Source: a virus (Duplodnaviria > Heunggongvirae > Uroviricota > Caudoviricetes). Taken from it: DNA of 37,432 nucleotides. Position 1 is the first letter of the stretch. Every line of letters begins with the position of its first letter. A program made the position numbers and the translations under genes. Under the pieces are notes generated by a model, which made no database searches, was not told the DNA's origin, and saw only the letters and a program-made list of their open reading frames with translations. The stretch lies in the IMG/VR virus record IMGVR_UViG_2724679140_000013. One strand, written 5' to 3'. Below are positions 2,788 to 36,516 of the stretch, piece by piece.

Positions 2788-2991
2788 ATGTCAGGTATAA
2801 CCATCAATATCAATGTGAATGCCCCCTATGTATCCCTGCAGAAATATGCAGAGATAACAGGTATCCCTCTTAATACATGCAAAAAGATGTTGGCTGACGG
2901 TCGAATTATTATCCGACCAAAACGCGCCAAAATGGAAAAGCCAGAAGTAAACCTTGTGGCAATGCTGAAAGACGCTATCGCTAACAGTTAA
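2788..2991 (+). CDS. small early protein with HTH-like segment
   Basis: 67 aa; GGAGG SD upstream of ATG; YAEITGIPLNTCKKMLADGRI resembles an HTH. Confidence 0.5.
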   Translation: MSGITININVNAPYVSLQKYAEITGIPLNTCKKMLADGRIIIRPKRAKMEKPEVNLVAMLKDAIANS

Positions 2992-2997
2992 AACAAC

Positions 2998-3360
2998 ATG
3001 AGCATCGCTATGAATAGAAATGCCACCTCCTCACGTTCTAAATACCGCAACGGGGCGGAACGCCATGCTAACCGTTTCGCTACCAGTGCATCACGCAGCA
3101 GCTCTCGCTACAGCCTGAGCGAAACACACGCAACACCGGATGGCCACGCTGTAAAACAAATCGGCGAGCATGCCTGGCTGATTGAGAAAGCTGGAATCGT
3201 GGTCCATAAATGCCCACGCAATCCGTTTACCGGAAACCGCATTTTTGCATTGAGCTGCGGCGACAATCAATTCGGGCAGGATTTCACATTATACGAAGCA
3301 CTTCGTACGGTTGATCGTCTGCTTCGCGGGCAAAGTTTTATTAAACAGGCTGATTTATAA
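2998..3360 (+). CDS. hypothetical early protein
   Basis: 120-aa ORF, tightly packed in early operon; start uncertain. Confidence 0.45.
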   Translation: MSIAMNRNATSSRSKYRNGAERHANRFATSASRSSSRYSLSETHATPDGHAVKQIGEHAWLIEKAGIVVHKCPRNPFTGNRIFALSCGDNQFGQDFTLYEALRTVDRLLRGQSFIKQADL

Positions 3361-3370
3361 CAGGTGAGTT

Positions 3371-3658
3371 ATGACCAAAGAGCATACACAAAGTGTATTT
3401 ATCCGTTTTATTGATTTTCGCGGTGAACTGTTATTACGCGCATCCGCTATTGATGGAGTGGCTCCGGCGGGTAAAAACGGAGCCGACGAAGCCACTTACG
3501 TTTATCTGAACGGCACGCGACTGCTTGTGGAACTTCCGTACCAGACCGTACGAGAAATCATTAGTGGAGCTGAAAAGGCACGCCAGGCTAATGGCGATGA
3601 ACCTTATATCGAAATTATTTGTATGGATTCAGAAGCAGAAATTCAGAAAGCAGATTAA
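3371..3658 (+). CDS. hypothetical early protein
   Basis: 95-aa ORF in early operon. Confidence 0.5.
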   Translation: MTKEHTQSVFIRFIDFRGELLLRASAIDGVAPAGKNGADEATYVYLNGTRLLVELPYQTVREIISGAEKARQANGDEPYIEIICMDSEAEIQKAD

Positions 3659-6931: not shown

Positions 6932-9754
6932 ATGACGGCAGAGTACATCAGGGACTGGCAACAGCCGCGCCACGCAGTGGGACGTGAAGGAACGGGGATC
7001 CCCGTTCCTGAATCCGCGCTTTCCTCCTGGCTGGATGCCTACCGGGCAGAGAACGAGCGCCGCCAGGAAATGGCTGATGCGGCGTTCTCCGCCACGCCGC
7101 TGGGCAACCTGATTAATAAAAGCCTGGATGCACAGGAAAAACAGGACAAAACCATCACACTGGCAGGAGACGCCAGAAAACAGGTACGCGGTGCGGTGGA
7201 TGAAGCCATGGCCTCGCTGCGCCTGCTGCCGTCCTATCTGCGCGATCCGCTTATTCGCCACCTCTCCTTCCTGCGCAAAAAACAGGAAGCCGATCGCCGG
7301 AAAGGCAAAAAGAGCTGGCAGGCTGAACGCTACGCGCGCGGAACCCTGCGCAAAATATTCGAACGTCTGGACCGCACCGACCACCGCTGGCTGACACCGG
7401 GTTATCGCTCCCTTGCCGGACGCGAACGCCTGGATGATTTGCTTTACCTGCCGCAGCTCAACAAGCACCAGATACAGACGCTGGCCACCATGACGGCGGC
7501 GATGTTCAGCAGCACCTTCGAAAAACTCTGCGATGGCTTTGGCGCGACTGATGGCGAGCTGACCATGGAGGTAACGCTGAAGGCGTATCAGATGCTGGCC
7601 CGCATGGCGTTACACCTGCACGCCATGCCTCCGCATTATGACGCACTGACAACAGACAAAGACCGGAGGAACGAACCGGACACGGAGTTGCTGCCGGGCG
7701 CAATCCTTCGCCTGACCTGTGCGGAATGGTGGAAACGCAAACTGTGGCTGTTACGTTGCGAGTGGCGGGAAGAACAACTCCGCGCCGCCTGTCTGGTTTC
7801 CAGAAAAACATCGCCCTATCTGAGCCAGGACGCGTTAAGCGAGTTTCGAGCACAGCGCGAGAAAACACGCGATTTCCTGAAAAGTTTCATGCTGGAAAAC
7901 GAAGACGGGTTCACGATTGATCTCGAGACGGTGTATTACGCGGGAGTAAGTAATCCGGTTCATCGTAAGGCAGAAATGATGGCCACCATGAAGGGGCTGG
8001 AACTTCTGGCCGAAGCCCGTGGCGACAAAGCGGTGTTTCTGACTGTCACCTGCCCGTCAAAATACCACGCCACAACAGAGAACGGTCATCCGAATCCCAA
8101 ATGGAACGGGGCCACCATGCGCGACTCCAGCGATTACCTGGTTAACACGTTTTTTGCGGCGGTCCGCAAGAAACTGAACCGCGACGGCCTGCGCTGGTAT
8201 GGCATCCGCACGGTGGAGCCTCACCATGACGGCACCGTGCACTGGCATATGATGGTCTTTGCTCATCCGGAAGAAATCGACACCATTGTGTCCCACACCC
8301 GCGATATTGCCATTCAGGAAGATCGTCACGAGCTGGGTGATGATATTACCCCACGCTTTAAGGCGGAGTACGTCGACGGCTCAAAAGGCACACCGACCAG
8401 CTACATCGCCACCTACATCGGGAAAAACCTGGACAGCCGTGCCGTGGATGGCATCGACCCGAAAACGGGCAAGCCACGCGTTGACCACGAAACCGGAAAA
8501 TCAATGGCCGAGAGCGTGGAACGCGCCATCGGCTGGGCGCGCCTTCACCGGGTCCGCCAGTTCCAGTTCTTTGGTATCCCCTCCCGTCAGGTGTGGCGTG
8601 AACTGCGCCGCCTTGCCAGCCAGATGGCTCGCAACCCGGAAGGACCGCAACGGCTGAAGGATGACGCAATGGACGCGGTTCTTGCTTCCGCTGATGCCGG
8701 ATGTTTTGCCACCTACATAGAGAAACAGGGCGGCGTACTTGTTCCACGCAAGGACTACCTGATTCGCACCGCCTACGACCTCGCAGATGAGCTGAACGAT
8801 TACGGTGAACAGAGCGTACAGATTTACGGGATCTGGTCACCGCTCATCGGGGAGTCTTCCCGCGTATGCACGCATCCGGACAACTGGAAGCTGGTAAGAC
8901 GCAAACCGGAAGCGGAAGACAGCGCCCGCGAAAATGGTTTTGACCTTCAGGGCGGCCCTGCCGCCCCTTGGACTCGTGGCAATAACTGTCCCCGTATACA
9001 GGAAACGGGCAACAACGGGACAGAACAGCCGGAAGAACGGCCAGCACCGTGGCCGCAGCTTCCTGACGGCGTTGACGTGAATGAATGGATGCGCTCACTG
9101 AAACGGCACGAACACCGGGCGCTGATGCGTTCGCTGCGTGACAAACAGGCAAAAAACAGCAGTGATGAAATGCAGAACTGGACACAGAGCCGCAAACAGC
9201 CACAGCCTTTGCCTGATAACCACGAGTTACTCGCTAAAGAATGGCGGGAGTCTGCTGAATCTCTCGGCCTGCATATCGGTGAACAGCAGATGCAGCACCT
9301 GTTACGGGGCGGCAGTCTGTACGTTGACGGCAGCATCATTGCACCGCAGGGATTTGAAATTGTACGCAAACCGGATACCCGCCCGGACAGCCGAATCACG
9401 CAGCTCTGGCAGCGCCTGAGCCGTAACCACGGCGTAAGCAGCACGGAGATCCGCCATAACCCGGTCGCCAGCTATCTGGAACAGCTGGGGGCATCAGACC
9501 CCGAAGCCGCCGCACGCCTGGCATCCACACTTCAGCAAGACCAGAACACCATGAAAACACCCGTTACCGTGCTTTCTGACATGCTGCGCGCCATCCGCGA
9601 CGCAGAGCACGCACAGAGAATCAGTGAAACCACTGAACGCGCCCGCCGCAAAGCAGACCTGCTGCGGGGTGGCCTGACCAGTGGAAACAAAAAACAGACA
9701 GAAACGGGATTCACAAATCCCGTAAATGAGCAAAAAACGCGCCGCGATATATGA
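6932..9754 (+). CDS. A: rolling-circle replication initiator (P2 gpA family endonuclease)
   Basis: 940 aa; HUH-type motif EPHHDGTVHWHMMVFAHP and downstream tyrosine motif YIATYIGKN; last early gene as in P2; longer than P2 A (about 760 aa) through a C-terminal extension. Confidence 0.85.
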   Translation: MTAEYIRDWQQPRHAVGREGTGIPVPESALSSWLDAYRAENERRQEMADAAFSATPLGNLINKSLDAQEKQDKTITLAGDARKQVRGAVDEAMASLRLLPSYLRDPLIRHLSFLRKKQEADRRKGKKSWQAERYARGTLRKIFERLDRTDHRWLTPGYRSLAGRERLDDLLYLPQLNKHQIQTLATMTAAMFSSTFEKLCDGFGATDGELTMEVTLKAYQMLARMALHLHAMPPHYDALTTDKDRRNEPDTELLPGAILRLTCAEWWKRKLWLLRCEWREEQLRAACLVSRKTSPYLSQDALSEFRAQREKTRDFLKSFMLENEDGFTIDLETVYYAGVSNPVHRKAEMMATMKGLELLAEARGDKAVFLTVTCPSKYHATTENGHPNPKWNGATMRDSSDYLVNTFFAAVRKKLNRDGLRWYGIRTVEPHHDGTVHWHMMVFAHPEEIDTIVSHTRDIAIQEDRHELGDDITPRFKAEYVDGSKGTPTSYIATYIGKNLDSRAVDGIDPKTGKPRVDHETGKSMAESVERAIGWARLHRVRQFQFFGIPSRQVWRELRRLASQMARNPEGPQRLKDDAMDAVLASADAGCFATYIEKQGGVLVPRKDYLIRTAYDLADELNDYGEQSVQIYGIWSPLIGESSRVCTHPDNWKLVRRKPEAEDSARENGFDLQGGPAAPWTRGNNCPRIQETGNNGTEQPEERPAPWPQLPDGVDVNEWMRSLKRHEHRALMRSLRDKQAKNSSDEMQNWTQSRKQPQPLPDNHELLAKEWRESAESLGLHIGEQQMQHLLRGGSLYVDGSIIAPQGFEIVRKPDTRPDSRITQLWQRLSRNHGVSSTEIRHNPVASYLEQLGASDPEAAARLASTLQQDQNTMKTPVTVLSDMLRAIRDAEHAQRISETTERARRKADLLRGGLTSGNKKQTETGFTNPVNEQKTRRDI

Positions 9755-9830: not shown

Positions 9831-10790
9831 ATGAAAATTTGTATCGATGACGGCTCCACCAACATCAAGCTGGCATGGACTGAGAACGGCGAACGCCGCA
9901 ACGCCATCAGCCCGAACAGCTTCAAGTCGGAATGGTCTGCGCCGTTCGGTGGAACGCAGCCCGCAAACTACATGCTTGATGGCGTGCGCTATGGTTTTGA
10001 TCCGGTCAGCGATCGCTTTGTCCAGACGACCGACACGCAATACCAGTACAGCGATGTGAATGTCATTGCCATTCATCACGCGCTGGTCAAATCAGGCATC
10101 ACACCACAGGAAGTGGATGTGGTTGTCACCCTGCCACTGAGCGAATATTTCGACACCAACGCACAGCCGGACATGGCCAACATCAACCGCAAAAAAGCAA
10201 ACGTCATGCGCCCGGTGGCGTACCAGAACGGAAAAGCATTCACTATCCGTAACGTACGGGTTATGCCTGAATCCATTCCGGCTGGTTTTAAAGCACTGGC
10301 TGACATGAGTCCGTTTGAATCCCTGCTGATTGTGGATTTAGGCGGAACCACGCTGGATGTGGCAAAGGTTCAGGGACAACTGGCAGGTATCAGCCAGGTG
10401 TTTTGCGATCCACACGTAGGCGTTTCCCTGATGGCCGATGCCGTACTGTCGGTGATGGCCACTAACGGTATGCGTACCAGTCACCACATCGCCAATACCA
10501 TTATCGAACATCGCCATGATGAAGCCTGGCTGCGCCAGCACATCCACAATGACGCGCATTACGCCAGCCTGATGGCGGTTATTCGTGAAAAGGAAGAAAC
10601 ACTGAAACAACGCGTGATCCGCGCGCTGGCGGGTTTTTCGGGTTACGGGCGGGTGATGGTTGTCGGTGGAGGGGCGGAGATTGTGGCACCCGCTATCCGC
10701 GAAGCCTGCGGAGTTAATGCGACTTTCATCGCGGACGGGGTGCCACAGTTTGCTCTGGTTAACGGGCTGTACGCAATGGACAAGGAGTAA
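9831..10790 (+). CDS. parM: ParM/StbA-type actin-like partition ATPase
   Basis: 319 aa; N-terminus MKICIDDGSTNIKLAW and motifs YSDVNVIAIHHAL, IVDLGGTTLD, VMVVGGGAEI closely resemble plasmid R1 ParM as I recall it. Confidence 0.85.
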   Translation: MKICIDDGSTNIKLAWTENGERRNAISPNSFKSEWSAPFGGTQPANYMLDGVRYGFDPVSDRFVQTTDTQYQYSDVNVIAIHHALVKSGITPQEVDVVVTLPLSEYFDTNAQPDMANINRKKANVMRPVAYQNGKAFTIRNVRVMPESIPAGFKALADMSPFESLLIVDLGGTTLDVAKVQGQLAGISQVFCDPHVGVSLMADAVLSVMATNGMRTSHHIANTIIEHRHDEAWLRQHIHNDAHYASLMAVIREKEETLKQRVIRALAGFSGYGRVMVVGGGAEIVAPAIREACGVNATFIADGVPQFALVNGLYAMDKE

Positions 10791-10794
10791 ACCA

Positions 10795-11109
10795 ATGACG
10801 ACACCAACCAGACGGATAAGTTTCTATCTGAAGCCAGCTGCAGTCAAGAGTGAACGGGAAGCGTGTAATTATCTCGACAGCCTGCCAGCCTCCGAACGCA
10901 GCCGCGCGCAACGCGCGGCATTTCTGGCTGGACTGGCACTCATTAAAAACGATCCTGCCTTTGCTTACTGGCTGGCTGAATGGTCAGAGGGGGAAAATAT
11001 GCCTGCCAACAATCACATATGGGGCTGGCATAACAGCGAGCCTGTTGGTTGCAAAAATCAGAATATAAGTCAAATAAAAAAGAATATTCAGGAATTTTTT
11101 CCTGAATGA
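10795..11109 (+). CDS. parR: ParR-like partition adaptor/repressor
   Basis: 104 aa from ATG at 10795 (AGGAG SD 7 nt upstream); RRISFYLKP...LDSLPASERSRAQRAAFLAGLALIKNDP resembles R1 ParR N-terminal RHH region; directly downstream of parM. Confidence 0.75.
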   Translation: MTTPTRRISFYLKPAAVKSEREACNYLDSLPASERSRAQRAAFLAGLALIKNDPAFAYWLAEWSEGENMPANNHIWGWHNSEPVGCKNQNISQIKKNIQEFFPE

Positions 11110-11113
11110 TCAC

Positions 11114-11140
11114 AAAAAGCATGGCTTTCGCCATGCTTTT
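11114..11140. terminator. intrinsic terminator after parR
   Basis: hairpin agcatggc-tttc-gccatgct flanked by A run upstream and T run downstream. Confidence 0.6.
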
Positions 11141-11429
11141 AAATATCAAATATCAGCTTCGCACTAGAAACGCCCAAGCTTTCCAGCCATACTCATGAGC
11201 ATCCAGCTTTCGACCAGAATCACCACGAACCTTACGGTATCGGCAAAACTGCCAACGAAATCCTTTCGGAGCCGGTTTTTTTACAATTGATTTCAAAGCC
11301 ATCCATAATCACCTCCTTACTGAGAATGATTTTTACCTTGATTATCTGCCTGGATTGACTAGAATCACAGTTGTACATGCAAAACATCAAGGTGATGATA
11401 TTTCTCAGACTATCATTCCTTTGTGTTGA

Positions 11430-11465
11430 AAAGCCCCTGACGGTTGGCCCCGTCAGGGGCTTAAT
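11430..11465. terminator. intrinsic terminator downstream of antitoxin gene (bidirectional potential)
   Basis: 10-bp GC-rich stem cccctgacgg / ccgtcagggg with flanking A/T runs. Confidence 0.6.
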
Positions 11466-11467
11466 AT

Positions 11468-11785
11468 TTATGCAACCTGACAGGAATGTTCTGCCGTCGC
11501 AGTAACAACCCCACCGGAATACCCAAACTTAAAATCCCACCCCAGGATGTTTAGCATGATAAACAGTCGATCAATGGTATGATTATCTAACTTACCATTA
11601 ATGATTTCGCTTACTCTTGGTTGGGTTGTTTCCAGCAATTCAGCAGCTTCTCGCTGGGTAAGACCGCGCTCCTGAATCATTTTTCGGATAATAACCATTA
11701 ATTGGGCCCGGATGTGTTTATCACTAGCTTCATTTACAGAGCTACTTGATGACGCATAAGGGTTTTTGACTACGACGAATTCCAT
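11468..11785 (-). CDS. HTH (XRE-type) antitoxin, HigA-like
   Basis: 105 aa; HTH GLTQREAAELLETTQPRVSEIINGK; directly downstream of the toxin gene. Confidence 0.75.
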   Translation of the reverse strand: MEFVVVKNPYASSSSSVNEASDKHIRAQLMVIIRKMIQERGLTQREAAELLETTQPRVSEIINGKLDNHTIDRLFIMLNILGWDFKFGYSGGVVTATAEHSCQVA

Positions 11786-11855
11786 AACTCTCCAGCCTTA
11801 ATCAGCGATGTTGCTGACATTGATTATGTTATATCAGATTTGAGATACCTGCAAG

Positions 11856-12257
11856 CTATCTTAAGCCATTTTTACGACGATACTCCACTAATTGTTTGTA
11901 TCTTGCGGCAGCTGTCTCATATTCTTTTTTTGACACACCATTTGTCTTTTTCTTAAATGTATGAAGTATGTAAACAGACTCCGCAAATTTCGCAACGTAA
12001 ATCATACGATAAGAATCACTACTCTTGATGGTTAATTGCATTGCGTAGCGACCAATCGTTTCCCGCATTGATTTTTTTTGAGCAGGTGGAACCCCCAAGG
12101 CATCATCACCATCCACTGGAAAATCGAAACTGTCGAAAGAATGAGGACAATCGCTCTGCAGTGCAACAAGCTCAAAATTTATCCTTTCTCGAACAGCTTC
12201 AGGATAACTATCAATTTGTTTCTGAATTTTATCATTCCAATATGTGATGTCTTTCAC
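11856..12257 (-). CDS. RelE/HigB-superfamily toxin (Gp49-like)
   Basis: 133 aa; C-terminal signature YRMIYVAKFAESVYILHTFKKKTNGVSKKEYETAAARYK typical of Gp49/HigB-like toxins; GTG start with GAGAGG SD. Confidence 0.75.
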   Translation of the reverse strand: MKDITYWNDKIQKQIDSYPEAVRERINFELVALQSDCPHSFDSFDFPVDGDDALGVPPAQKKSMRETIGRYAMQLTIKSSDSYRMIYVAKFAESVYILHTFKKKTNGVSKKEYETAAARYKQLVEYRRKNGLR

Positions 12258-12349
12258 TCAGAACCTCTCACCAACGTAACCGAACGAAATTATACAAAGA
12301 TCTTTTTTTCGCTTAAATACATCCACTGAACGTTGATTTTAATGCAAGA

Positions 12350-12369
12350 TTGTGCACAAATTTGCACAA
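12350..12369. promoter_or_regulatory. candidate operator of TA operon
   Basis: ttgtgcacaaatttgcacaa: TGCACAA repeated at 10-bp spacing with partial dyad symmetry, about 95 bp upstream of toxin start. Confidence 0.4.
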
Positions 12370-12867
12370 TTTTTTTGAACGACTTTTTGCCCTTCCGGCC
12401 CGCGTGGCGGCTGGATCCGCCAAGGATCCGTGCGTGCACAAAAAAACGCGTTTTTTCTGCGCGCAGGTGACGGGGGAACAGCCCGCGTTTCAGGGGGTAA
12501 ATAGCATTCCCTGAACGATGTCGCAGCGACACAACAGAATGGCTGTATCGCTCACGCTGAGCGTGAAAAATACGTAAGGGGTTCTGATTTGATGGGGTGA
12601 AAGGTAAGGCCGTCAAATCGCAATGAGACGGCGAGAACATGCTGTCAGCTCGATGGGATTGCGTAAGAGTCTGGCCATCGATGATGGCGATAAGTTGGAA
12701 GACGTCGTGAAATTATCTGATTGATACGGGAGCTGGAGAGTCGGGGCATAAATTTTTTATGCCCCGGCGAAGCAGCAGACAAGCGAAGCGCGTCAGTGAT
12801 GCGGCACCTTGCCGACCACACTCCATAAGTGCAAAATACGAGCAAAGAAATCAATGGAGGCTGTTTT

Positions 12868-13392
12868 ATGGTCATTAATTACAAGCAGTTACGAGAAAAA
12901 CGAGAGCAGGTAAAGGAAAGTTTTCGCCGCAATGAAGATCTGACCCCGCTTGTACACCTTGCCCAGGGAATTGTTGATGCTTATGAAATCTCTCTGGAGC
13001 TGCCATCACAGACATGGACGGATAGCGACGGTAATCGCCAGCATTACGTTTCATGCGGACTGGAAACAACTGAAGGGTTTCGCAGAATGCCTTTATCTCA
13101 GATTCCTGCCGCTACCCCCAAAGCAAGGGGCGGCAATGATGAGCGAAAACTGATTTTTAGCATTGAGACAGTGGTTGACGACACACCTGGCGAAGTCGCG
13201 TTCGTGCATACTCCTCTTTCGATCGCAATGTATAACGATGAAATACAGGTTCGCGTTAATAATAATATCGTGCCACTTAAAGAAGGTAATTCACCCTACA
13301 CCACCGTTTGTGAAGCCATTCAATATTACGTTCTCTCTGAAATTGATAATCTCAAGCCTGACGGCACCCAGAAAATGGTTCAACTCTGGTAA
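12868..13392 (+). CDS. hypothetical protein, accessory gene next to portal
   Basis: 174 aa from ATG at 12868 with GGAGG SD 7 nt upstream; followed by intrinsic terminator; no family recognised. Confidence 0.55.
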   Translation: MVINYKQLREKREQVKESFRRNEDLTPLVHLAQGIVDAYEISLELPSQTWTDSDGNRQHYVSCGLETTEGFRRMPLSQIPAATPKARGGNDERKLIFSIETVVDDTPGEVAFVHTPLSIAMYNDEIQVRVNNNIVPLKEGNSPYTTVCEAIQYYVLSEIDNLKPDGTQKMVQLW

Positions 13393-33715: not shown

Positions 33716-34474
33716 ATGTTCAGTTTATTTTCGTTAACTGCCGGAGCAAATGTGCGCTGGCATGATTTACCTGGTAAAGGTATTCCTGTTGTTTTTATTC
33801 ATGGGCTTGGCTGTTCCTCTTCTTATGAATATCCACGGGTTGTTGCAGATCCTGCATTTGGTGGACAACGAGCGATATTGATAGATCTCCCTGGATATGG
33901 ATTCAGTGATAAGCCTAAAGGATTCGATTACAGCATATCCCATCAAGCTAAAGTTGTTATTGAAGTAGTAGAAACCTTAAATCTCTCACAGTTCCATATT
34001 TATGGTCACAGTATGGGGGGAAGTATTGCGATTGAAGTGGCCAGACAACTACATGAGAGAACAAGAAAGCTTGTGGTTTCTGAGCCTAATTTTCACTCTG
34101 GTGGAGGTACCTATAGCCGTAAGATAATAGAGAAACCAGAAGCAGAGTTTATTTCGCATATATATAATGAATTACTGGAGTGTGAAACATCCCCATGGAA
34201 AGGTGAACTCCAGAATGCAGCCCCATGGGCAATATGGCGAGGAGCCAAAAGTCTGGTTGATGGAACCACTCCATCATGGAGAGATATATTCCTTAATCTG
34301 CCCTGTTCACGTACACTAATTTTTGGCGAACAATCATTGCCAGACAATGATTTCCAGCAAATAAAAGAATCTGGAATATCTGTTGCAATAGTGCCAAACG
34401 CTGGACACTCCATGTCATGGGAAAATCCATCAGCACTGGCCTCAATTTTACATACAGAATTTTATAGAAAGTAA
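33716..34474 (+). CDS. alpha/beta-fold hydrolase (esterase/lipase-like), AT-rich cargo gene
   Basis: 252 aa; nucleophile elbow GHSMGG, N-terminal HGLG oxyanion-region motif; markedly lower GC than flanking phage genes. Confidence 0.8.
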   Translation: MFSLFSLTAGANVRWHDLPGKGIPVVFIHGLGCSSSYEYPRVVADPAFGGQRAILIDLPGYGFSDKPKGFDYSISHQAKVVIEVVETLNLSQFHIYGHSMGGSIAIEVARQLHERTRKLVVSEPNFHSGGGTYSRKIIEKPEAEFISHIYNELLECETSPWKGELQNAAPWAIWRGAKSLVDGTTPSWRDIFLNLPCSRTLIFGEQSLPDNDFQQIKESGISVAIVPNAGHSMSWENPSALASILHTEFYRK

Positions 34475-34520
34475 AATAACCTATACATAGATATTGTTTC
34501 CACCAACATCATATTATCAA

Positions 34521-34553
34521 AGAGCAGGGCAAATTTACCTCCTGCTCTTTTAC
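34521..34553 (+). terminator. intrinsic terminator after hydrolase gene
   Basis: hairpin agagcagg ... cctgctct followed by TTTT. Confidence 0.55.
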
Positions 34554-34827
34554 TCAAATTAGATGATTTTATAGCACACATTTTATGAAATATTTAAAAT
34601 CTATAAACTTATAAGAACATTTTTTATCAAAACACATACATAATGAACAATCTCTTTTATCATAATTAGTAAATTATCACTTGATAATAAATGACATACT
34701 AAATATGCATCAGGGTTAATTTTTATTAATAGATAAACGTCCATGCCTCAATCTGACCTGATTGTTGATTGGCATATTCACTAGTACAATTTAAAATCAC
34801 GATAGCAGCACATTAAGGGAGGTCGCT

Positions 34828-35088
34828 ATGTTTCGTTGTCCGCTTTGTGGCGCATCTGCCCGTATCCGCACCAGTCGTCCGGAAAATGATTCAAACACCG
34901 TGCGGCAAAAGTATTACCAGTGTAACAACCTGGAATGCGGCGTATGCTTCTCAACACTGGAAGCTTTCCATAAATTCACATCAAAACACGCCTCCGGCGT
35001 TCACTCTTCAGAAGGTATCCCGTGGCATGAGCTGCCAGCTTCACACAGGGGAAACAATCAGATGAGTTTGCCTTTACCTCAGAATTAA
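34828..35088 (+). CDS. ogr: Ogr/Delta-type zinc-finger late transcription activator
   Basis: 86 aa; MFRCPLCGASARIRTSR ... YYQCNNLECGVCF (CxxC...CxxC) closely resembles P2 Ogr; AAGGGAGG SD. Confidence 0.85.
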   Translation: MFRCPLCGASARIRTSRPENDSNTVRQKYYQCNNLECGVCFSTLEAFHKFTSKHASGVHSSEGIPWHELPASHRGNNQMSLPLPQN

Positions 35089-35277
35089 CAGGCAGAATTG
35101 CCGGAGTAACAAAAAAGCGATAGATTACGTGCGGGTGCCTTTCGGCTGATGGTCGGAGGGAATACCCGAAGGCCGGATGTGGAAAGGCCCCGGAAAACAT
35201 TTCTGTTTAACCGAGGCCCTAACCCGTCAACCTAGCAAGTGATAGGTTAGCGCCTCTCCAACAAAGGAGCAAGCGCT

Positions 35278-35418
35278 ATGTCGCAAAAATCGCTTACGGC
35301 CATCACGTTCTGCGTGACGGTAATCCTCATCATCTGGATGCTGCACGGTTCGCTGTGTGAAATACGGATGAGCTTCTGGGGAGCGGAGTTTGCGGCGTTC
35401 TTACAGTGTAAGCAGTAA
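35278..35418 (+). CDS. Hok/Gef-family type I toxin-like small membrane protein
   Basis: 46 aa (below ORF-track cutoff): MSQKSLTAITFCVTVILIIWMLHGSLCEIRMSFWGAEFAAFLQCKQ; N-terminal TM helix and SLCEIR...E.AAF signature of Hok family; AAGGAG SD 9 nt upstream. Confidence 0.6.
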   Translation: MSQKSLTAITFCVTVILIIWMLHGSLCEIRMSFWGAEFAAFLQCKQ

Positions 35419-35607
35419 GGAAACCGCGACGGGGAGGCAACTCCCCGTCAATCGGTTGCCAGGGTAAGGCCGATAAGGCACCCTATCTCATAGGCATGAA
35501 TAACAACCCCACAGCGTAAAAACTGCGGGATTTCTTTTTGGGACTCTCACTAGCTAGTGAGCTGTTAACTGCACATAATGCTCGCACAACAAATCATTTA
35601 AAAGAGA

Positions 35608-35889
35608 TTACTCAGCATTCTCCTGCTTCCATTGCCGGATCATTTCATCGGTAACATCACTTTCATAACATACCACGTCATACCCTCCAGTACGGCTATA
35701 TGCACTGCGTCCACCACATCTACTACCATTCCTTGCATGATTATACGGACACGCACAATTGCCTGGATAAGATTCAATGGATTCTTTAATTATTTCTTTC
35801 TTGATCTGAGCGTCTGACTTTCCTGTTGCTGCATACCCACTAAAAGATACCAAACACAGGCAGATTGCCATTAATAAACCACATCGCAT
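35608..35889 (-). CDS. hypothetical small secreted cysteine-containing protein
   Basis: 93 aa from ATG at 35889: signal-peptide-like MRCGLLMAICLCLVSFSGYAATG then six-Cys mature region; upstream in-frame extension in ORF track unlikely. Confidence 0.5.
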   Translation of the reverse strand: MRCGLLMAICLCLVSFSGYAATGKSDAQIKKEIIKESIESYPGNCACPYNHARNGSRCGGRSAYSRTGGYDVVCYESDVTDEMIRQWKQENAE

Positions 35890-36139
35890 ACCGATACACT
35901 CTATTACTAACCAATCATAGCCCACATCATAAAATCGAGATGAGGAGTACAGCACCTTTAACAAGAAGGTGCCATCACGATAATATGCCGTGCAATTCAT
36001 CAAAAAAAAGATCTATATCAAAGAGATAGAGTTATTATCAGTGCTGCAGACATCAGCATTCGAGGCAGCAGAAAGACAGTAAATCTAACGAATTTGTCTT
36101 TTTCTCAGGATGTTCTCAGATTAAAAAAGATAGAGTAGC

Positions 36140-36260
36140 GTAGACACCTTTTGGTGGATGGTAGGAGGAAAAATGAAGTTGAGTGGGAAGATCCCAGAAA
36201 AAACTTTGGTTTAACCAAGGCCCTAGTTCAATATGCGAAATGCAGATGAGTTGCAGGAGA
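36140..36260 (+). other. second, degenerate copy of the hok-type 5' leader (no intact toxin ORF seen)
   Basis: about 70% identity by eye to 35130-35240 (shared gatggtNggagg and gaaaaacNtttNgtttaaccNaggccctag blocks) but no downstream SLCEIR-type ORF. Confidence 0.35.
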
Positions 36261-36360: not shown

Positions 36361-36390
36361 ACAAAAAAACCACCCGAAGGTGGTTTCACG
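36361..36390 (-). terminator. intrinsic terminator of glyW-cysT-leuZ operon
   Basis: on minus strand hairpin aaaccacc-ttcg-ggtggttt followed by T7; 40 nt downstream of leuZ 3' end. Confidence 0.6.
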
Positions 36391-36429
36391 ACACTGCTTA
36401 TTGCTTTGATTTTATTCTTATCTTTCCCA

Positions 36430-36516
36430 TGGTACCCGGAGCGGGACTTGAACCCGCACAGCGCGAACGCCGAGGGATTTTAAATCCCTTGTGTCTACCG
36501 ATTCCACCATCCGGGC
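36430..36516 (-). tRNA. leuZ: tRNA-Leu (anticodon UAA)
   Basis: 87 nt; reverse complement reads GCCCGGATGGTGGAATCGGTAGACACAAGGGATTTAAAATCCC...GGGTACCA with anticodon loop TTTAAAA. Confidence 0.95.

Follow-up and report, generated by a model that had tools for sequence, protein, structure and literature searches.

The window, by which we mean the whole 37,432-nt stretch of DNA that was analysed, is a complete P2-like prophage with an integrase (1-1002), replication protein A, portal, tail sheath and tube, gpD and ogr, and its right end abuts the glyW-cysT-leuZ tRNA operon and pgsA of E. coli. The segment 35000-36450 is 100% identical to E. coli M8 and about 99% identical to the O145, O103 and O45 EHEC. 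The gene under study, an open reading frame of 93 codons, lies at this end of the prophage among the following features, each given with the evidence on which it was placed.

34828-35088, plus strand: ogr/delta zinc-finger late activator, the last core gene before the cargo (Pfam Ogr_Delta 5e-14, RefSeq).
35133-35418, plus strand: intact hok/sok-type locus encoding a 46-aa Hok, convergent with the 93-codon gene (HOK_GEF 3.7e-07, NCBIfam HokA-like).
35505-35532, no strand assigned: GC-rich hairpin between the convergent hok and 93-codon genes (terminator scan, conservation).
35546-35561, no strand assigned: perfect 16-nt palindrome ctcactagctagtgag, located 46 nt downstream of the stop codon of the 93-codon gene (position, count, conservation).
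35608-35889, minus strand: CDS of the 93-codon gene, encoding a 93-aa precursor (ORF list, sequence, RefSeq CDS WP_071529678.1).
35611-35829, minus strand: part coding for the predicted mature domain, residues 21-93, a helix, a basic Cys-clamped loop and a helix (alignments, AlphaFold model).
35830-35889, minus strand: part coding for the putative signal peptide, residues 1-20, with cleavage predicted between GYA and AT (n/h/c layout in homologues).
35890-36127, minus strand: AT-rich region upstream of the 93-codon gene, about 38-41% GC, with a weak SD-like agag (sequence, composition, promoter scans).
About 36128-36235, plus strand: another hok-type leader, which survives as a remnant lacking a hok ORF and diverges from the 93-codon gene (alignment to the first leader, ORF list, BLAST among loci).
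36363-36516, minus strand: attR side, with tRNA-Leu leuZ (36430-36516), its 3' external spacer and terminator (RefSeq and K-12 annotation, alignment, Rfam tRNA).

The 93-codon gene runs from ATG to TAA, with its stop codon at 35608-35610 on the minus strand. The coordinates in the preliminary description of this DNA were exact, and the same CDS stands in RefSeq, where WP_071529678.1 is labelled a hypothetical protein. Every source that names the protein calls it hypothetical, and searching the literature for the accession, for P2-like/leuZ and for ogr/hok/moron returned no paper on it. Many metagenome gene callers use a 131-aa reading from the TTG at 36003, which we rejected because the extension is unconserved and would leave the signal peptide in the interior of the protein.

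About 580 of 5426 complete E. coli genomes (~11%) carry the gene when those holding at least 80% of it are counted, and nearly all of these copies are at least 95% identical. Pairwise comparison with other E. coli alleles gave dN/dS values of 0.05-0.13, at dS of up to ~0.2 and of ~2 for a 75%-identical allele, and purifying selection on the gene is strong. O157:H7 is among the carriers, and there the gene is kept in a degraded Sp13-type P2-like prophage in which ogr-hok has been replaced by an IS30-family element. P2-like prophages of Salmonella carry a homologue with 58% identity in the same slot adjoining leuZ. A lack of conservation in related islands had been named in advance as the observation that would count against the gene; what we found is that it is kept in the prophages of both E. 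coli and Salmonella. The protein has 260 close homologues, counted as cluster representatives, and in the alignments all family-invariant residues are present in it. We conclude with high confidence that the ORF is a genuine protein-coding accessory gene.

Identity to the prophage-free K-12 chromosome covers leuZ, the 3' external spacer and the terminator and ends near 36361, which places the attR junction there. The gene lies between ogr/hok and this junction, inside the prophage borders. In a viral contig (L104) int, att and the gene are contiguous, and such contiguity in phage contigs indicates that the gene is phage-borne and not host flank. Its GC content is 42% as against 50-57% in the flanking phage genes, and the isolated-phage genome collection held no match to it. 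A conserved ORF of low GC content, in a phage-borne slot, variably present and without a match in isolated phages, carries the signature of a moron. With high confidence, therefore, the gene is accessory cargo of a P2-like prophage that has inserted at leuZ, and it occupies the attR-proximal end. It resembles the morons of other P2-like phages in its low GC content, variable presence and fixed slot; P2's own cargo comprises tin/old and Z/fun. It differs from them in position, since its slot extends from ogr/hok to attR and is neither the A-Q slot nor one of the tail-gene slots, and its product has no match to a known defence or virulence family. On the attR side, the 3'ETS-leuZ small regulatory RNA of the K-12 annotation (36363-36429, minus strand) is intact and identical beside the prophage.

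The earlier placement of the gene between two hok-type leaders is correct, with an intact hok locus on one side and an ORF-less leader on the other. The intact locus consists of a leader (35133-35288) and the hok CDS (35278-35418), both on the plus strand, and the Rfam sok model scores 47.3 bits there, under its gathering score. The HOK_GEF profile has no match in the 93-residue protein, although it matches the neighbouring 46-aa ORF. Three hok leaders are present in the Salmonella prophages (locus L004, 6340-6518, minus strand); in the third, the hok start and four codons (MPQK) lead directly into the 3' end of the homologue of the 93-codon gene, so that the cassette appears to replace the hok coding region. 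The repeated leaders may act as recombination anchors for the exchange of cargo.

The hairpin between the convergent genes is terminator-like on the minus strand and has a T-run on the plus strand, at the 3' end of the hok mRNA; it is kept in related loci and constitutes a conserved element between the two genes. The palindrome is perfect, as had been reported, but lies at 35546-35561 and not at 35538-35553. It is intact in 14 of 41 related loci; the remaining ones have a degenerate copy or none. Three perfect 16-nt palindromes were observed in the window where 0.57 were expected, which is weakly above chance; the other two are at 6991-7006 (AACGGGGATCCCCGTT) and 12441-12456 (AAAAAACGCGTTTTTT). 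We considered the palindrome beside the gene as a terminator or operator, but it is poorly conserved, and without a loop or T-run it is not convincing as either. It is probably incidental.

Promoter scans of the region upstream of the gene gave no convincing sigma-70 promoter, the best match being 8/12. The sole promoter-like match at the scan threshold in the cargo region (TTAACA-17-TAATAT, 35958-35986, plus strand) is directed away from the gene and faces the second hok-type leader. Read-through from the tRNA operon was considered unlikely as the source of transcription because the terminator in the leuZ 3' spacer is intact.

Other cargo was observed in the window. A gene for a 252-aa alpha/beta-fold hydrolase without a signal peptide lies between gpD and ogr (33716-34474, plus strand, ~40% GC) and is followed by a spacer of 28% GC (34475-34827). 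Among the related prophage loci compared, the hydrolase was found only in the M8 locus and in viral contig L093. In Kosakonia/Enterobacter chromosomes a homologue with 57% identity is located ~0.8 kb from a member of the domain family described below, with two small membrane ORFs in between, of which the one scanned matches the GhoT/OrtT toxin family. The slot between gene A and the portal gene Q (9831-13392) encodes a ParM/StbA-like actin-type segregation protein (9831-10790), a toxin-antitoxin-like Gp49(HigB-like)/HTH_37 pair (11468-12257, minus strand) and a further two ORFs lacking a Pfam match.

The N-terminus of the 93-residue protein is made up of M-R, a hydrophobic core (CGLLMAICLCLVSF) and SGYA, with A following at the predicted cleavage site, and thereby shows the tripartite layout of a Sec signal peptide. 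The same n/h/c layout recurs in 35 of 35 aligned homologues although their sequences differ, in keeping with the signal peptide noticed earlier. The cysteines had been described less accurately. There are seven in the precursor rather than six. Three of them (C3, C10, C12) fall within the signal peptide; the remaining four, C45, C47, C58 and C74, belong to the mature part and are the only conserved ones, being invariant in the family. Of the reported pattern CAC...C..C, the CAC is found at 45-47, but there is no C..C pair in the mature part, and the only other C-x-C in the protein is CLC, in the signal peptide. A lipoprotein reading was rejected because the homologues have no cysteine at the lipobox position. 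The general proposal of a small, secreted, disulfide-stabilised periplasmic protein fits the conserved putative signal peptide, the four invariant cysteines, the purifying selection and the confident structure model. With moderate confidence, the sequence suggests that the product would reach the periplasm and be stabilised there by two disulfides.

The mature part holds one copy of a domain of about 70 residues with the consensus SDAQIKxxIIxESIAxYPGNCPCPYNxARNGSRCGxRSAYSRPGGYxPxCYxxDVTxxMVxxYR, of which the motif is YPGxCxCPYN..RNGSxCGxRSA[YW]S[RK]xGG...C[YF]xxD[VI]. Invariant in the family are S37, Y41, C45, C47, P48, G55, C58, G59, R61, S62, A63, G68, G69 and C74, and the protein agrees with every invariant column of the S..Y.G.C.CPY...G..CG.RSA.S..GG motif and with the four cysteines. 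When a profile built from the homologues was searched over 1.84 billion cluster representatives, the four-cysteine domain family comprised 2268 clusters at 50% identity (E<=1e-3). The genome matches are chiefly in Alpha-, Beta- and Gammaproteobacteria, and also in Geomonas and a few others. Klebsiella, Enterobacter, Pantoea, Erwinia, Dickeya, Janthinobacterium, Caulobacter, Sphingomonas, Xanthomonas and Pseudomonas are among the genera with the domain.

Chromosomes, plasmids and prophages all carry the domain, but the family is mostly chromosomal and far larger than its phage-borne set. Plasmid copies were found in 35 Xanthomonas records, on Pantoea megaplasmids and on small colicin N plasmids, where the family gene follows that of the Exc2 exclusion lipoprotein. 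The family member of Klebsiella pneumoniae is an ordinary chromosomal gene and looks "viral" only because a prophage integrates beside it.

In the phage protein catalogue the domain has a single entry, PHROG 27544, annotated as "unknown function". The match to the 93-residue protein is full-length (E 1.5e-59, profile positions 1-81 of 81), with the model beginning at residue 13 of the precursor, and this is the same family as catalogued from prophages. We assign the protein with high confidence to PHROG 27544 and the unnamed family around it. Pfam and NCBIfam scans of the protein gave no family, and the only match at E<=1 was a sub-threshold one to the Sclerostin cystine knot (PF05463; 16.8 bits against a cut-off of 27, E 0.0058), which was taken as chance because its span includes the signal peptide. 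A scan against PADLOC-DB gave 0 families at E<=1.

Across 80 genome loci compared, no gene neighbour is conserved across taxa, and the neighbourhood therefore points to no pathway. A second small secreted protein, GYxRKDGTYVxPHxRTNPNxxxxDNWSTxGNxNPYTG, which has no Pfam match, is encoded beside the family gene in seven loci from distant taxa: four alphaproteobacterial (L036, L047, L049, L067), two from Geomonas and relatives (L011, L015) and one from Xanthomonas (L066). An alpha/beta hydrolase gene is found near the family gene in four Kosakonia/Enterobacter loci. Both were examined as functional clues and set aside, their distribution being too narrow.

The combinations in which the domain occurs are more informative about its nature. 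Among the best 150 of the 2268 representatives, 82 are single-domain proteins of at most 135 aa, the domain is C-terminal in 56 of the 68 that are longer than 135 aa, and six carry tandem copies; some of the shorter "long" relatives may be over-long gene calls. In 51 longer relatives (~150 aa or more) the Pfam domains found were SH3_3 (15), SH3_4 (8), PG_binding_1 (3), SNase (3) and Adhesin_E (1), and in the fusions to SNase, a secreted nuclease, the family domain stands either before or after it. Mixing of this kind, with nuclease and wall-binding partners, is what a ligand-binding module typically shows, and from the sequences the family domain would be one. The wall-binding fusions fit an anchored effector domain equally well as a second binding domain.

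Excalibur (PF05901) has a comparable distribution: both it and the family domain are found either on their own after a signal peptide or fused to a secreted SNase. In Pseudomonas an SNase+Excalibur gene is located ~2 kb from a family member, and a stretch resembling Excalibur was noticed by eye, not through a family search, in the sequence of one relative (P0161). The Pfam scans gave no match to the PF05901 model, and the motif and cysteine pattern differ from those of Excalibur.

Much smaller relatives are encoded in accessory regions of temperate phages. Phage TL-2011b (gp43, "putative transmembrane anchored protein") and the Klebsiella phage ST512-KPC3phi13.3 (QBQ71877) have 53-aa precursors with a signal peptide and the core loop C-x12-C-G-G-R-S-A-x-S-R-P-G-G as in the 93-residue protein, in the form C-x12-C-GGRSADSRPGG. 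The mini-proteins differ from it in having a mature part of ~30 residues, two cysteines and no flanking helices, and the hhalign probability between the two loops is 97% (E 4e-11). They are probably what is catalogued as phrog_14503, "membrane associated protein", and the label "transmembrane anchored" of gp43 probably reflects its signal peptide. Genes for such proteins are at 3453-3614 in the TL-2011b locus (L173) and at 2956-3114 in locus L174; that of TL-2011b is beside the ant/arc region and adjoins a YafO toxin gene. Since the two-cysteine mini-proteins keep the GGRSAxSRPGG loop, this loop, rather than the cysteine set, looks like the functional core. Alignment with the mini-proteins also suggests how the cysteines of the 93-residue protein would pair, C45 with C58 and C47 with C74.

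The AlphaFold model of the mature domain, based on an alignment of 101 sequences, has a pLDDT of 88.2 and a pTM of 0.72 and predicts a helix at either terminus and, between them, a long loop region containing a short beta-bridge hairpin. Foldseek searches with the full-length model against the PDB and BFVD and with the mature-domain model against the PDB gave a best E of ~1.6 and TM <=0.31, and a PDB sequence search with the family profile gave no match even at E<=10. In the absence of fold relatives in PDB/BFVD the structure gives no lead on function. The chemistry of the inter-helix loop is distinctive: over 253 domains its mean net charge is +3.9, R61 never varies and position 66 is occupied by R or K throughout. 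The mature E. coli protein is slightly acidic overall (net -1), so that a general binding of polyanions is not obvious. No invariant His/Asp/Glu set of catalytic type is present among the family domains.

The joint explanation that we favour, tentatively, is that the gene is a real moron encoding an exported two-disulfide domain, a ligand-binding module that alters the envelope of the lysogen. The protein would be exported to the periplasm through its Sec-type signal peptide, where the four invariant cysteines would form the disulfides C45-C58 and C47-C74 and clamp the basic loop RNGSxCGxRSA[YW]S[RK]xGG between the two helices. The domain would be neither enzyme nor toxin but a module for binding a conserved, probably anionic, component of the envelope or of incoming material, such as peptidoglycan, LPS or nucleic acid. 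A free periplasmic copy produced by the lysogen would change a property of the envelope to the benefit of the carrier prophage or plasmid, for example by protection against, or exclusion of, incoming lytic agents or DNA. Since prophages and plasmids carry the domain repeatedly, in one case next to an exclusion gene, protection or exclusion is the outcome that we find most attractive; given the many ordinary chromosomal copies, as in K. pneumoniae, a role peculiar to phages, such as exclusion, need not be assumed. As for this particular protein, we hold only with low confidence that it acts as a free binding module for an envelope-associated ligand and so changes the lysogen envelope.

One may further speculate, as a long shot, that the domain is a new extracytoplasmic fold which phages and plasmids use as a free periplasmic blocker of the entry of competitors, binding an envelope polymer, incoming nucleic acid or lytic machinery, and that the 30-residue mini-proteins are its minimal active loop. 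An entry-blocking domain of this sort, if true, would be a new kind of superinfection/entry-exclusion or envelope-protection protein.

Two alternatives to the ligand-binding module deserve to be weighed, although we consider both improbable. The first is a periplasmic inhibitor, in which the clamped loop C-G-x-R-S-A-Y would be substrate-like, with Arg61 as P1, and directed against a trypsin-like protease, or in which the protein would block a lysozyme or peptidoglycan hydrolase. The protein is small, putatively exported and Cys-clamped, its exposed loop has an invariant R-S-A, the fusions to SH3b and PG_binding_1 would put such an inhibitor on the wall, and carriage on prophages and plasmids suits a protective factor. 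Ecotin, Ivy, PliC/MliC and the T4 Spackle protein are small, Sec-exported, often disulfide-bonded and periplasmic, and some are phage-encoded. The likeness of the 93-residue protein to them would, by analogy, extend to size and predicted location only: it matches neither the profiles nor the folds of ecotin, Ivy, MliC and PliC (no Foldseek E<1), and Pfam, NCBIfam, PDB sequence and Foldseek searches revealed no sequence or fold similarity to inhibitor families. Reactive sites of canonical inhibitors tend to vary, whereas the loop of this family is invariant across phyla. The SNase fusions in both orders are hard to account for by inhibition, and the neighbour survey found no linked gene for a target enzyme.

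The second is a metal-binding or redox-active function, equally improbable in our estimate, in which the C-x-C (mostly C-P-C) and the two other cysteines would bind metal or form a strained disulfide, as in the CPC of Mia40 and the CGC of Erv2. A CPC/CAC pair is indeed part of the four invariant cysteines. Calcium is bound by the Excalibur motif and required by SNase, and the Excalibur-like stretch in P0161, as read by eye, and the SNase fusions of other relatives would be in keeping with such a function. Against this, the family domains show no conservation of a His, Met or acidic cluster, in the oxidising periplasm structural disulfides are to be expected by default, and the mini-proteins retain the GGRSAxSRPGG loop with two cysteines only.

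A secreted toxin or bacteriocin-like effector is very unlikely. A small Cys-rich secreted product on mobile elements, colicin N plasmids included, could suggest one, but a Sec signal would take the protein no further than the periplasm of the cell that makes it, neither an immunity nor an export partner is conserved, the gene is a stable chromosomal one in many genera, selection is purifying and strong and not diversifying, and PADLOC and toxin-family scans were without a match. The possible inhibitor or toxin-like effector of the preliminary description thus found no direct support, there being no similarity to known inhibitors or toxins and no partner or immunity gene, and the fusions point instead to a binding module. 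That the ORF is spurious or decaying and without function in this prophage is hardly credible, for while promoter scans gave no clear promoter and the setting is among hok remnants beside attR, the gene is intact in hundreds of E. coli genomes at a dN/dS of ~0.05-0.13, has all family-invariant residues and is kept in the degraded Sp13-type O157 prophage.

The gene described here belongs to a familiar class of element, the secreted cargo of temperate phages, and encodes a domain that has not been described. Its immediate value is modest because the evidence points to no specific surprising mechanism. The domain family is large, extending through the Proteobacteria and beyond, and it recurs on prophages and on colicin and plant-pathogen plasmids. 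The bacteria that have it include major pathogens such as EHEC O157, O145 and O103, Salmonella and Klebsiella. Definition of its ligand would annotate thousands of "hypothetical proteins" and could reveal a new envelope-level mechanism of conversion or exclusion.
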